From NCBI RefSeq assembly GCF_058153355.1, contig NZ_CM177019.1: a DNA stretch of 64,000 nucleotides; one strand, written 5' to 3'. Positions 33,001 through 39,000 of this stretch are shown here, piece by piece. The position numbers were made by a program. Each line of letters starts with the position of its first letter. Within the stretch, counting starts at the first letter, position 1.

Positions 33001-36000
33001 CTAATGTGGGCCGGTTGTAGGCGTTTACGCCGCATCCGGCCCCTGGCACAAACTATTTCCCCGCCTCCGGATGCGTATCAAACGCCGCCATCACCAACGC
33101 CAGTTCATCCACAGTAAAGCCATGCTTTGCGTCATCTACGCCCAGACCAAACTGCTCCTGCATCACGGCATATAACGACGCCACATCCGGTAGATTTCGC
33201 TGCTCCACTGCATGTCCATTTTCATAATGGGTGAAATGAAAATTGGTCAGTGTCAGTTTGCCACCGTCCGGCAAATGGCGGCACATCAGCAAATGATGGC
33301 GAAAATGCGATTGCGGCCAGTGCGCAGACCAGAAATTGCCCATTATATAATCGCTTTGTTGCTGCTCGCAGAGATCAAAACGGTACATCGACTGCCAGTG
33401 CTGATGATGATTAAACTGCAACACCCAATCATCACCCTCCTGTAACAACCGATACTCTCCGTGTGGCGTGATCTGCACGAGATCGGGAACTAAACGAATC
33501 GGCGCGGTTAGCGTCTGTCCACCGAAACCGACATCAGCAATCCATTTTTCCCCTTCCAGTTCCACCAACAACAAACGATGGGTGCGCGGCGGTAATGCTG
33601 GCGGATTAGATAACACTACGCGCCCTAACAGACTGCGTACCTGAAAACCCAGCTCGCGTAACACCCGCTCAAACACGCCATTCTGCTCAAAGCAGTAACC
33701 ACCACGCCGGGCGAGCACCAATTTCTCTTCCAGCGATTGATCATCAAGCTGCATTTCTCTCGGCAGTAAAACATCGAGATTTTCAAATGGAATGGTGCAA
33801 TTGTGTTTCAGGTGTAATGCGCGCAGCGTTTCGATATTGACCGCAGCCGCTCCCGACCAGTTAATGCGGGTAAAATAGTGATTCAGAATGGGCGTCATCA
33901 GGCGTTTCCGTTTGTGGTTTTCTCAATTTATAACCTGGAATAGACGCCGCACCGGCTATTTTGTGCGATCGCGGACATGCATCACGTTCGCAAATCGCCA
34001 ATCCCGTTAATTTCGTTGCTTATTGCGTTACGAGCTACGCTTTTAAAACACCCTTCATAGCGAGGCGATATCGTGAGCCGATTCATCCCTGTCGAATTAC
34101 ACCATGCCAGCCGTCTGTTAAATCATGGCCCAACTGTCTTGATCACCAGTTTCGATGAGCAATCCCAGCGGCGTAACATTATGGCAGCAGCTTGGTCAAT
34201 GCCGGTGGAGTTTGAACCGCCACACGTGGCAATTGTGGTAGATAAATCGACATGGACCAGGGACTTGATTGAACGTAATGGTAAGTTTGGCATCGTTATC
34301 CCGGGTGTTGCAGCAACTAACTGGACGTGGGCGGTGGGAAGTGTCTCGGGTCGAGAAGAAGATAAATTTAATTGCTATGGCATTCCGGTTGTGAAAGGTC
34401 CGGTGCTTGGATTGCCGCTGGTTGAAGAGAAATGTCTGGCATGGATGGAGTGTCGATTGCTACCAGCGACTTCTGCGCAAGAAAAATACGATACGCTATT
34501 TGGCGAAGTGGTATCGGCAGCGGCAGACGCACGAGTATTTGTCGAAGGCCGCTGGCAGTTTGATGATGACAAACTCAATACACTACATCATTTAGGTGCT
34601 GGCACGTTTGTTACCAGCGGGAAGCGAGTTACGGCAGGTTAAGCATTACATGCTGTAACCAGGTTTCTTTATCAGCGTCTCCATTTGGGGCGCAATTTCG
34701 GCGTCCCAGACAGCTTGCCATGATTCTGGTTGAATCTGCTGTAGAGCAATGCTTATCGAACTGTCTTTACTGTTCAGATGGCGAATAATAACGTCGGTAA
34801 TATCTGCAGCAAGTGCTGCTTTTTGTTGTTCGTCCAGTTCACGTGGAAAACATTTAATGTCTATGTGCGGCATGATTGTGCTCCTTTTGAAAGATGTCAG
34901 TAAAATTAACACACGTTGTGAATGTTATGTGTCCGGTGATGCTTTTTTACGGCAATAATGCCTACTTGAATTTGTACAGATTTGTACTACACCCTTTTAA
35001 ATAAAGCGCCAACAAAAAACGTCAACTTGCAGAATATATTCTTCGCCAACATGCCATTAAGAAACATCAAGTTCCCGGCTTGCCAATTTATTAACGCCCA
35101 TTATAGTTATTCTTGCCCTCACAAAAATTTTCATCCGTAATTACCCCCAATAAAAGTCCATTCTGGAGACGCTTAAGATGCAGCTTAATCATATTGTTAA
35201 AAGTCTGCTAATAACGGGATTATTCACCACCAGTTCTTTGCCACTCCTCGCGGCGGAAGCCCCTAAAGACGCCACCGCAGCCACGCAACAAGCAAACAAT
35301 TTACTCTACAACCAGTTGCCGTTTTCTGATAACACTGACTTTACTGATGCCCATAAAGGTTTTGTTGCCCCTATCCCTCAAGACGTGATTAAGGGCGAAA
35401 AAGGAAATGTTATCTGGGATCCACAACAATACGCTTTTATTAAAGAAGGTGATAAAGCCCCTGATACGGTGAATCCAAGTTTATGGCGTCAGGCGCAACT
35501 GATAAATATCAGCGGATTATTTGAAGTGACTGAAGGTGTCTATCAGATTCGTAACCTCGATTTATCAAATATGACCATCATTGAAGGCAAAGAGGGTATT
35601 ACCATCGTTGATCCCCTTGTTTCAGCAGAAAGAGCCAAAGTGGGTATGGATCTCTATTACAAAAATCGCGACAAAAAACCGGTAGTAGCGGTTATCTACA
35701 CACACAGTCATGTCGATCACTACGGTGGTGTTCGCGGCGTAATTGATGAAGCTGACGTTAAATCAGGCAAAGTTAAAATCTACGCGCCAGCCGGATTTTT
35801 GGAGGAAGCCGTTTCCGAAAATATTATGGCTGGCAATGTGATGAGCCGACGAGCCAGTTATATGTATGGCAACTTATTGAAACCTGATGTTAAAGGCCAG
35901 GTTGGCGCGGGACTGGGAACAACCACTTCAGCAGGAACGGTCACGTTGATTGCTCCTACTAACTACATCACCAAAACCGGACAAAAAGAAACTATTGACG

Positions 36001-39000
36001 GGTTGACCTATGATTTCTTGATGGCGCCAGGCTCTGAAGCACCTTCTGAAATGCTGTGGTTTATTGAAGAAAAGAAACTGATCGAAACCGCCGAAGATGT
36101 TACGCATACCCTTCATAACACCTATTCGCTGCGTGGGGCTAAAATTCGCCAACCGCTGCCGTGGTCAAAATATATTAACGAAGCTCTCAATTTATGGGGA
36201 GATAAAGCCGAGATTATTCTCGCTCAACATCACTGGCCAACCTGGGGCAACGATAACGTGGTCAAACTGCTTAAAAGCCAGCGTGATTTGTATCGTTACA
36301 TCAATGATCAAACTCTGCGTATGGCAAATCAAGGGATGACCCGTGATGAAATTGCCGCAAACTTTAAACTGCCCTCTTCACTGGCTAATACCTGGGCGAA
36401 TCGCGGCTATTACGGTTCGGTAAGTCATGACGTGAAAGCAACTTACGTGCTTTATCTCGGCTGGTTTGATGGTAACCCCGCGACGCTTGATGAACTGCCA
36501 CCAGAAGAAGGCGCAAAAAAATTCGTCGAGTATATGGGCGGTGCTGATGCCATTTTACAGAAAGCCAAACAAGATTATGACCAGGGTAATTTCCGCTGGG
36601 TTGCTCAGGTTGTAAGTAAGGTGGTGTTTGCGGATCCAAACAACCAGGCAGCGAGAAATCTGGAAGCTGATGCGCTTGAGCAGTTAGGCTATCAGGCTGA
36701 ATCTGGGCCGTGGCGTAATTTTTATCTCACAGGCGCACAGGAATTGCGTAATGGCGTACAAAAATTACCAACACCAAATACTGCCAGCCCTGACACCGTG
36801 CGTGCAATGACGCCAGAGATGTTCTTTGATTATCTTGCCGTCCATATTAATGGTGAGAAAGCGGCAGATGCCAAAGCTGTACTGAATTTCGATTTTGGTG
36901 AAGATGGCGGCACCTATAAAGTGGAGCTTGAAAATGGTGTTCTCAATCATACCGATGGTGTAAAGGCTTCGGATGCTGATGCCACTATCACTCTGTCTCG
37001 TGATGTATTGAACAAAATTGTACTAAAAGAAGAGACGCTGAAAGAAGCCACGGACAAAGGAGATGTCAAAATTACTGGCAATGCGGAAAAACTCAACGAG
37101 CTGTTAGGTTATATGGATAATTTTGAATTTTGGTTCAATATAGTGACACCATAAATTTACTGTATACCGGGCAGGTATCCTGCCCTTTTTTGGTTAAAAA
37201 ATGGCTGAACAAAGAAAAACGCATCACTCGTGGAAAACCCGCCGCGATATGGTTATTCGCGGCATGACGATTAGTTTGCCATGGTTTGCTTTTATCAATG
37301 TCAGTTTTGCATTGATGATTTTGCTGCGCCGTGTTCTGTTTAATGACCTTACTCCTCCCTGGTTAAATGAAAAAAGCCTTATACATTCTATTGATATATC
37401 TGCAACGGGTATTCTGCTGATTTGCAGTGGTTTACTACTCATCCCTCGGCAAAAAACATTACCTATCCAGGTGCTATTAGTTGCCCTGAGCCTGCTATGG
37501 TCATGGTGTAGTTATCACTTTATTGCGTACTGGACGCTGCAGTTTGCTTATCCACTATGTGTATTATTAATGCTTAGTGGCGTTGTCGCACTTTATTTCC
37601 ATACCCCATCATTGCTCGCATTTGTCATTCCCTTATGGTTCACCACTCCAATAGCGAGCCTTATGCTTAATCAACAGGTTAATATTCATTTTGCTGTTAT
37701 CTGGTGTATTTTTTCACTGGCGTTATATGGTGGGCGACTCATTTTGTTACGTTGGTTTGAAGAAGCATGGGAACAAAACAGCTATAACAACCAGTTAATT
37801 AATCGCCTTGATGCATTAGCACATCGTGATCCTTTAACTGGGATAGCAAACCGACGAGCAATGAACAGTATCTTACACGACGCGATAGATAACGGCGGGT
37901 CATTTGCTCTTATTATGCTGGATGTCGATTTTTTTAAACGCTACAACGACACCTACGGGCATCCTGCTGGGGATCGTTGTCTGATACAAGTTGCCGACGC
38001 TCTACAGCATTCAACTCGCCAGTCGGAGGATGTTGTTGTCCGTTATGGTGGCGAAGAGTTTGCCATCATACTTTTTAATGCAACATTGCCGGAAGCAGAG
38101 ACGGTAGCAGCCAGAGTGAAGCAAGAACTTAAACTGGCAGCTATCCCGCATCAGGCATCTGCTGTTAATGCATTCGTTACGGTTAGTCAGGGGATTACCT
38201 GTTCAGCTCCCGCAAAAACGGCTGAACAAATTATTTCAGATGCCGACGCCGCGTTATACCGGGCGAAAGAAAGTGGGCGAAATCGATGGGAAAAATAATT
38301 AAATGATTCCATTCCTCTTTAGTATCCCTTTTAGCTTTGGTATCTGACATACAGCATCAGCGATCGCACTGATATTCGTGGCATTATCCTGAAACCATTC
38401 ATGCCCAGGCCCCCATGTGCGCATAGTGCAAAGATAACAGTCCACCAGCGTTAGTTGCTCACCAAACGCATAAGGTTCAGCGGTCAATTGTGAATTCAGC
38501 CAGATATAAAGCGATTTGCGATATTCAATAACATTCTTCTTCAACTGTTCAGGTGCGTCAGGAGCCCAACGCTCAGGGTAATCGGCGAAGGTAAACGTTG
38601 GATAGACATTAGCGACCAGCCAGACCAATAACCGTTGAAACTGCTGACGTTCGGCGTGCCCAATCGGTGGCGAAAAATTCGGGTGGCGGTCGAGAACCAT
38701 CAATGCAATCGCCGCTGTCTCCGTCATAATCTCGCCATTTTCCAGCACCATTGTCGGAATCTGGCACAACGGGTTCAGGTTTTTCAGTATCTCGCGAGAA
38801 GTTCCCTCGCGATCAAACCCACTGACATCAACGAACTGATAAGGAATATCAGCCAGTGATAGCATCAGCTCACTGATTGTAGAGCCCCATCCGGGTACGC
38901 CATACACCTTAATCATATGCCCCTCACAATCTTTTAAAGATTAAGTGTAGGACAGTACACAGGTTAACCAGCAAAAGGATTTGTCATTTTTTCGTCAGTT

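Follow-up and report, generated by a model that had tools for sequence, protein, structure and literature searches.

The interval between pptA and yncG in the window that we analysed (the whole 64,000-nt stretch of contig NZ_CM177019.1) very probably holds an accessory gene pair of Escherichia coli, composed of an alkyl sulfatase gene and the gene for the diguanylate cyclase DgcY. This pair is already known from E. coli SMS-3-5 and CE10 and is no novelty of the present strain. The two flanks named in an earlier note on this DNA were confirmed by open reading frame (ORF) reading and by Pfam and NCBIfam domain matches. On the left lies the tautomerase gene pptA (34646 to 34912, minus strand; Pfam Tautomerase; NCBIfam PptA equivalog score, 158 bits; cutoff, 83), whose annotated product is probably the 75-amino-acid (aa) form starting at 34873, following the RefSeq annotation of the SMS-3-5 homologue. 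On the right, yncG (38299 to 38916, minus strand) encodes a GST-family protein, and its stop codon abuts that of the cyclase gene (TAATTA). An Rfam scan of positions 34500 to 39200 gave no match at E ≤ 1. In K-12 MG1655, the same interval contains ISEc5/ydcC, an ISAs1 pseudogene, yncO, ydcD, a 5'-truncated rhsE, and yncH, in agreement with the rhsE/ydcD/ydcC content that the earlier note had given for it.

The first gene of the pair (35178 to 37154, plus strand) encodes a protein of 658 aa that had been described as a secreted, MBL-fold, alkyl-sulfatase-like protein with the motif THSHVDHYGG, and the analysis agrees with this description, secretion being predicted. The protein combines the three domains of type III alkyl sulfatases, namely, the MBL domain (Lactamase_B, 70 bits; Pfam cutoff, 22.7), the central dimerisation domain (Alkyl_sulf_dimr, 212 bits), and the SCP2-like C-terminal domain (Alkyl_sulf_C, 152 bits; SCP2, 28.7 bits). 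The HxHxDH zinc-binding motif of the family is present as H176-S-H-V-D-H181 (35703 to 35720, plus strand) and is identical in the alignments with YjcS, 7tl5, and PSdsA. Residues 1 to 25 (MQLNHIVKSLLITGLFTTSSLPLLA; 35178 to 35252, plus strand) read like a signal peptide, and the alignments with 4nur and 7tl5, as mature chains, begin at residues 26 and 29 of the protein, respectively, consistent with a cleaved, periplasmic enzyme. Full-length matches in the PDB comprise 7tl5, PSdsA of Pseudomonas sp. (4nur), Pisa1 (2yhe), and SdsA1 of P. aeruginosa (2cfu), all type III MBL-fold alkyl sulfatases like the window protein, together with YjcS of K-12 (4pdx). The scores for 7tl5 (1184 bits) and PSdsA (1039 bits) exceed that for YjcS (705 bits). 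The latter shares the three-domain architecture and the HxHxDH motif and aligns over its full length, but it is only 49% identical and is encoded elsewhere, next to mdtNOP, and is a paralogue rather than the same gene. Given the full-length similarity to PSdsA and SdsA1, we predict a zinc-dependent enzyme of the SdsA1/YjcS family that would cleave alkyl sulfate esters, e.g., SDS, into alcohol and sulfate.

The second gene, dgcY (37201 to 38298, plus strand), encodes a membrane diguanylate cyclase with MASE5 and GGDEF domains. The length of 365 aa reported earlier stands if translation begins at 37201, where the N-terminal extension is conserved in many relatives. A start at 37249, as in the RefSeq entry of SMS-3-5 and in a Citrobacter relative, would yield 349 aa and may be the true one instead, which is the sole correction to the earlier gene reading. 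The MASE5 membrane sensor domain (PF17178; residues 25 to 206; 37273 to 37818, plus strand) scores 154.6 bits against a Pfam cutoff of 25.2, and its six predicted transmembrane helices, joined by very short loops, appear in both a hydropathy scan and an AlphaFold model (mean pLDDT of 87). In the model, the last of these helices runs on into a long stalk helix (residues 162 to 207) that leads to the GGDEF catalytic domain (residues 207 to 362; 37819 to 38286, plus strand; Pfam, 165 bits). The active-site motif GGEEF, noted before as intact, occupies residues 283 to 287 (38047 to 38061, plus strand). It is invariant in 86 relatives, as are the residues that bind metal, GTP, and phosphate (D241, D243, K246, N249, D258, R281, K356, and R360), so that the protein carries the full residue set of an active cyclase. 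The enzyme is predicted to be a dimeric inner-membrane protein whose GGDEF domain, complete in its catalytic residues, is connected to MASE5 by the stalk helix, and its cyclic di-GMP (c-di-GMP) output would most likely be governed by a signal that it senses within or at the membrane.

The catalytic residues also bear on the possibility that the cyclase gene has degenerated or is decaying and no longer yields a functional enzyme in the present strain. Truncated clusters of 328 and 243 aa in the databases, an IS1 inside the cyclase gene of one complete genome, the loss of the cyclase from E. albertii, and the fast divergence of the protein would fit such decay. Against this, the reading frame is intact in the window, no catalytic residue is missing or varies among the 86 relatives, and the predicted structure is confidently folded, making decay very improbable.

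Like the window protein, membrane cyclases of K-12 (DgcF/YneF, DgcT, DgcC, and others) have a GGDEF domain fused to a membrane domain. The cyclase is, however, not a copy of a K-12 enzyme encoded elsewhere. The NCBIfam equivalog models of the named E. coli cyclases (DgcC, E, F, J, N, Q, Z, and others) all scored far under their cutoffs, the best including DgcN (120 bits; cutoff, 325), DgcQ (99; 408), and AdrA (92; 402). A paralogy with DgcF, the one K-12 cyclase compared directly, was rejected, as the identity is 28% and confined to the GGDEF domain. A published table lists an Enterobacter MASE5-GGDEF protein without a K-12 counterpart (PMC7232144). The best whole-length structural match is ImcA of P. 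aeruginosa (PDB 8wcn), which likewise has six transmembrane helices and a GGDEF domain, at about 23% identity and a TM-score of 0.42 to 0.45. The membrane domain of ImcA is required for activity and partner binding, and ImcA is controlled by IsmP (PMC10904736; the term MASE does not occur in the main text of that paper).

At the I-site position, alignments to WspR and ImcA confirmed the earlier reading of R273-Q-S-E-D277 (38017 to 38031, plus strand), i.e., RxxxD instead of the RxxD that canonically stands five residues upstream of GG(D/E)EF and that ImcA retains as RRPLD. The canonical position reads QSED, with the Arg shifted one residue upstream and the Asp (D277) in its usual place. The missing RxxD is one point in favor of reading the block as a recently acquired horizontal island that gives the strain an extra, constitutively active cyclase, a reading in line with the extra, possibly unregulated cyclase of the earlier note. 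Among the relatives, both R273 and D277 are found in 86 of 86 sequences, while an Arg at position 274 occurs in just 1 of 86. The lack of RxxD is, as far as this alignment goes, a signature of the family. R305, which we take by residue count to be the equivalent of R390 in PleD, is likewise invariant (86/86), and the invariance of R273, D277, and R305 suggests a retained but shifted allosteric site. Given in addition the conserved six-helix membrane sensor domain and the position of the gene directly behind a terminator, the proposal of a possibly unregulated cyclase is not supported.

This terminator, a strong one according to the earlier note, is a canonical intrinsic hairpin with a T-run (37169 to 37191, plus strand) located between the two genes. 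Its sequence, GGGCAGG-TAT-CCTGCCC followed by TTTTTT, forms a 7-bp stem with six G-C pairs, and all tandem loci have a GC-rich hairpin here, its sequences in Citrobacter and Lelliottia being unrelated. Upstream of the pair, a promoter-like site (TTGCCA, 16-nt spacer, TATAGT; 35080 to 35107, plus strand) lies 70 nt 5' of the sulfatase ATG and matches the consensus at 10 of 12 positions. Both hexamers are kept in upstream regions of Escherichia, Citrobacter, and Lelliottia that are otherwise unalignable, suggesting that the site drives the sulfatase. The two co-oriented genes would then be cotranscribed from one conserved promoter with the hairpin in between, and this arrangement most likely results in high expression of the sulfatase and low, read-through-dependent expression of the cyclase. 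Alternatively, a promoter for the cyclase may lie within the sulfatase gene, towards its 3' end.

The block is 98.4% identical at the nucleotide level to the pair of SMS-3-5, where a GGDEF protein is encoded directly downstream of an alkyl sulfatase at 1.72 Mb; the sulfatases share 98.9% and the cyclases 97.8% of their amino acids. Both strains have the same two genes in the same order at the same pptA-yncG site, with only allelic differences, and the SMS-3-5 cyclase in RefSeq is 16 codons shorter than the 365-aa form. A preprint refers to this pair in SMS-3-5 and CE10 as dgcY and the alkyl sulfatase EcSMS35_1714 (bioRxiv 10.1101/2021.12.20.473597, citing Povolotsky & Hengge 2016). Our use of dgcY follows this secondary citation and the position of the locus tag; the protein names in the databases are generic and do not include "DgcY."

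Of 5,426 complete E. coli genomes, 438 contain 80% or more of the block, showing that it is neither specific to the strain nor a misassembly. The remaining 92% of the genomes, K-12 included, lack it, which is compatible with a recent gain. However, the block occupies the same site in four loci from other Escherichia lineages (with about 90% nucleotide identity overall in one of them, L004) and in an E. whittamii-type contig, and in part also in Citrobacter, and the gene content of the interval comprises no integrase, transposase, or other mobility gene. The alternative occupants of the site are vgrG-Rhs-ISAs1 islands, and truncated remnants of the block persist in strains that now carry them. 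E. coli MS1718 retains 372 nt at 99.5% identity, which reach 68 nt into the 5' end of the sulfatase gene and abut an ISAs1 element, and shorter remnants are left in M3 (233 nt) and K-12 (83 nt). Because other Escherichia carry the block at this position and truncated remnants of it persist beside ISAs1/vgrG-rhs islands, it looks ancestral at this site by parsimony over a handful of loci, and lost from K-12 rather than gained here. The synteny difference from K-12 described earlier thus stands, with the Rhs region in place of the block, but its direction appears reversed. The pair would long have resided at the pptA/yddH-yncG site of Escherichia, from which ISAs1-associated vgrG/Rhs islands, coding for type VI secretion effectors, would have displaced it in most E. 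coli.

The tract from pptA through the sulfatase gene to dgcY is 98 to 99% identical to that of SMS-3-5, compared to about 93% for the immediate flanks. This shows exchange between lineages, a point in favor of a recent island, and means that homologous recombination also carries the block from one E. coli lineage to another. Given the conserved site, the lack of mobility genes, the remnants, the sensor domain, the upstream terminator, and the invariant R273, D277, and R305, a recent island with a constitutively active cyclase is nevertheless improbable. The neighborhood as a whole is highly mosaic among E. coli in a bin-wise comparison. An origin of the window from a non-coli Escherichia had been suspected, since the best full-coverage match of the narY-pptA flank reached only 94.4%, and was ruled out by the 99.1% identity of window positions 1 to 22000 to E. 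coli N96. In a search of genome contigs with a full-length cyclase profile, generic GGDEF proteins dominated the matches listed, so that this search bears on the presence of the cyclase in a species and not on its absence. The YNDxYGH pattern was not specific to the cyclase family.

The pairing of such a sulfatase with a MASE5 cyclase recurs at different chromosomal sites in other genera. The genes are in tandem in Citrobacter sp., adjoining a bor-like gene, and in Lelliottia, between tynA and feaB, as they are in Escherichia at pptA-yncG. In Pantoea they are separated by 3 kb that encode a FadL/Toluene_X outer-membrane channel. Salmonella carries the same two families side by side as yreP-yjcS, with a sulfatase 85% and a MASE5-GGDEF protein 48% identical to those of the window, but there the two genes diverge from a common intergenic region and lie elsewhere on the chromosome, between an emrE-like gene and ttcA; this pair is found in typhoidal and extraintestinal serovars (bioRxiv 10.1101/2021.12.20.473597).

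Such recurrence hints at a functional link between the two proteins. Both might form one functional module, in which MASE5 would sense the amphiphilic substrate, the fatty-alcohol product, or the periplasmic enzyme itself and thereby turn exposure to detergents or alkyl sulfates into c-di-GMP-driven biofilm protection, a possibility that we put forward tentatively. In P. aeruginosa, SDS induces SiaD-dependent aggregation, which would offer an analogy, as would the control of the six-helix cyclase ImcA by its partner. On the other hand, Citrobacter sedlakii and E. albertii carry only the sulfatase at the site that the pair occupies in E. coli, and the cyclase stands alone there in one further genus and, in addition, is found without the sulfatase in Enterobacter cloacae, Hafnia, and Mangrovibacter. 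The two proteins also evolve at unequal rates, with identities between genera of 81 to 87% for the sulfatase and 48 to 51% for the cyclase, and, as the loci compared number about a dozen and come from related Enterobacterales, common descent could account for much of the linkage. A sensory module would be compatible with the occurrence of the pair at four or five different places in the chromosomes of five genera, with the retention of a hairpin between the genes of each tandem locus although the sequences are unrelated, and with the precedent of a partner-controlled cyclase, but these points do not prove it. It is conceivable, if somewhat doubtful, that this is a conserved two-gene sensory module of the Enterobacterales that reports alkyl sulfates, detergents, or membrane-active alcohol products through c-di-GMP, and that the shifted RxxxD patch serves this family specifically as a site for allosteric control or for binding a partner.

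The practical value of these assignments is modest: DgcY, a c-di-GMP enzyme that varies between strains, and its neighbor are now correctly labeled, the idea of the cyclase as an unregulated extra is corrected, and the RhsE remnant of K-12 is seen to occupy the place of what appears to be an older sulfatase-cyclase pair. If the pairing reflects function, the MASE5 domain, still without a known signal, would gain a testable class of ligands, namely, detergent-like amphiphiles. This would be relevant to survival in the gut, with its bile and host sulfated lipids, and in surfactant-containing environments, and it would bear on the enrichment in invasive serovars that is reported for the Salmonella counterpart.

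The gene layout was taken from an open reading frame (ORF) listing across positions 30-43 kb of the window. Between pptA (34646-34912, minus strand; NCBIfam PptA) and yncG (38299-38916, minus strand; Pfam GST family), beyond which follow ansP, yncE and yncD, lie two ORFs on the plus strand: a 658-amino-acid alkyl sulfatase (35178-37154; Pfam Lactamase_B, Alkyl_sulf_dimr, and Alkyl_sulf_C/SCP2) and a 365-amino-acid diguanylate cyclase, DgcY (37201-38298; Pfam MASE5 at residues 25-206 and GGDEF at 207-362). A terminator, GGGCAGG-TAT-CCTGCCC followed by TTTTTT (37169-37191), lies about ten bases 5' of the cyclase ATG at 37201, and the stop codons of the cyclase gene and yncG are placed back to back as TAATTA. 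No mobility genes were found inside the sulfatase-cyclase block. The ORF listing, the Pfam assignments, and the terminator hairpin all agree with the layout and flanks described in an earlier note made from the sequence alone, whose observation is confirmed in every detail. Located 5' of the sulfatase promoter is a tandem ATTTGTAC repeat (34969-34990; two copies, 10-nt period), whose TTTGTACTAC portion is kept in all Escherichia loci compared and which may be a regulator site.

The pair itself is not new. The SalmoNet2 preprint lists the cyclase as "yreP (dgcY in E. coli)" and the alkyl sulfatase as "yjcS (EcSMS35_1714 in E. coli)," reports that the Salmonella pair is commoner in typhoidal and extraintestinal serovars and has a common regulatory region, and places the first joint description in E. 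coli SMS-3-5 and CE10, after Povolotsky and Hengge 2016 (10.1101/2021.12.20.473597). The orthologues of the window genes are the SMS-3-5 genes at 1.72 Mb. Among related MASE5-GGDEF proteins, that of Pantoea sp. YR343 lacks RxxD, and its promoter is active on roots and in biofilm. Another, from Enterobacter ludwigii, has no K-12 counterpart (PMC7232144). Of 5426 complete E. coli genomes, 438 carry the block contiguously, the highest identity being 98.4%, reached by SMS-3-5 among others, and no NCBIfam equivalog of a named E. coli cyclase came near its cutoff for the window cyclase; both results speak against a misassembly or a copied K-12 cyclase. A copy of DgcF was likewise rejected, as DgcF is 28% identical and matches in the GGDEF domain alone.

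In MG1655, the pptA-yncG interval contains ISEc5/ydcC, an ISAs1 pseudogene, yncO, ydcD, a 5'-truncated rhsE, and yncH, in agreement with the earlier note's map of rhsE/ydcD/ydcC at this position. Further E. coli strains carry vgrG-Rhs-immunity-ISAs1 islands between pptA and yncG, with or without yncH, and the K-12 rhsE region is an eroded form of these islands. Remnants of the block persist beside such elements: 372 nt are left in MS1718 (locus L090, 9001-9372), 99.5% identical to the window; they include the promoter region and extend over the first 68 nt of the gene for the sulfatase. This remnant stops at an ISAs1 (ydcC) element adjoining a vgrG island and looks like the scar of the replacement event. 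Shorter remnants remain in M3 (233 nt) and K-12 (83 nt).

Both genes together are found at this site in L004, a lineage with about 90% identity across 17 kb, as well as in at least three further diverged Escherichia-like contigs (L097, L093, and L094) and one contig of E. whittamii type (L105). In E. albertii (L104, 5001-11060), the sulfatase gene is followed by an Rhs element that replaces the cyclase gene and yncG, while in Citrobacter sedlakii (L106, 5001-7645) it abuts yncG, with neither cyclase gene nor pptA; one further genus has the cyclase alone at this site. The simplest reading is that the pair is an old resident that has eroded to varying degrees and, in most E. coli, has been replaced; K-12 has probably lost the pair, as opposed to the strain of the window having gained it. 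The interpretation in the earlier note, an extra cyclase at the RhsE site that varies between strains, is partly right. As a separate observation, E. coli N96 (L103, 16627-24560), the complete genome nearest to the window by its flanks, has lost pptA, in place of which lie an IS256 fragment, an ISAs1 element, a group II intron, and a PAAR-VgrG-M35 metallopeptidase island.

The block is also moved by recombination: from pptA to dgcY, identity to SMS-3-5 is 98-99%, and for yddH and yncG it is about 93%. Among E. coli, the surrounding narU-yncD neighborhood (22500-48000) is a pronounced mosaic. In the 3' part of narV (e.g., 31501-32000), identity is about 81% with SMS-3-5 and MS1718 and about 95% with K-12, N96, and M3, and the highest full-length match in this neighborhood is only 94.4%, a value that wrongly suggests an origin outside E. 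coli. In the diverged contig L093 (2307-3410 versus window 37201-38298), the cyclase gene is 84% identical at the nucleotide level and the adjacent sulfatase gene 96%, suggesting either that the two genes are separated by a recombination breakpoint or that the cyclase evolves much faster.

The sulfatase has full-length matches to the solved alkyl sulfatases 7tl5 (1184 bits), PSdsA (4nur; 1039), and E. coli YjcS (4pdx; 705), and Pisa1 and SdsA1 also match over its whole length. Given that K-12 YjcS is only 49% identical and is encoded elsewhere in K-12, the window protein is a YjcS paralogue. Its HxHxDH motif is intact (H176-H181), and its N terminus resembles a signal peptide, with the mature PSdsA chain aligning from residue 26. 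The protein is strikingly conserved between genera, with identities of 92% in Citrobacter sedlakii, 85-87% in Salmonella, Citrobacter sp., and Lelliottia, and 81% in Pantoea, and its 90% cluster takes in E. albertii, E. whittamii, and Citrobacter proteins. The predicted promoter hexamers of its gene are also kept across genera.

The catalytic residues of the cyclase are complete and invariant in 86 relatives. The earlier note had found RxxD missing at the I-site, and alignments to WspR and ImcA indeed place QSED there, with the Arg one residue further upstream, so that the canonical motif fails. In 83 of the 86 relatives, T, S, Q, or H stands in place of the canonical Arg; the RxxxD pattern belongs to the family and is no strain-specific defect. 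R273 and D277 occur in all 86 relatives, as does R305, which by residue count would correspond to PleD R390. That these three residues never vary favors a conserved and possibly shifted site over simple loss, and calling the cyclase "unregulated" is unsupported.

An AlphaFold model of the cyclase (pLDDT 87) has six transmembrane helices joined by minimal loops; the sixth is prolonged into a stalk (162-207) that leads to the GGDEF domain. Its top whole-length structural match is the six-transmembrane GGDEF cyclase ImcA of P. aeruginosa (8wcn), whose membrane domain is required for activity and for control by the partner IsmP (PMC10904736). Among 78 more distant relatives, mean identity is 44% for MASE5 and 57% for GGDEF. 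The start codon is ambiguous: most relatives conserve the 16 additional codons that begin at 37201 (W, R, DMV), while the RefSeq annotation and one Citrobacter relative use a downstream Met. In the complete E. coli genome NZ_CP033635.1, an IS1A lies within the cyclase gene, and protein clusters of shortened forms (328 and 243 amino acids) exist; dgcY is therefore sometimes inactivated. By feature names, window positions 1-22000 include dosP, along with fdnG, maeA, ddpA, and an ompC-like porin, so there are further c-di-GMP genes near dgcY.

At other chromosomal sites, MASE5-GGDEF relatives of about 50% identity adjoin this sulfatase: the two genes are divergent in Salmonella, tandem in Citrobacter sp., tandem between tynA and feaB in Lelliottia, and at most 3 kb apart in Pantoea, with a FadL-type channel in between. 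Every tandem locus has a GC-rich hairpin, unrelated in sequence, just after the stop codon of the sulfatase gene. Together with the promoter hexamers conserved across genera, this supports an operon-like arrangement in which expression of the cyclase is attenuated. It also suggests a functional link, such as sensing of an amphiphilic substrate or product, which is nonetheless less likely than not: the sample is small and phylogenetically close, the two proteins evolve at very different rates, and each also occurs alone. The sulfatase is absent from the tynA-feaB site of Enterobacter cloacae, where the cyclase is present, and was not found near the cyclase in Hafnia and Mangrovibacter. The forward-looking part of these findings is confined to the recurrent linkage of the sulfatase with MASE5 cyclases and the family-wide RxxxD signature.
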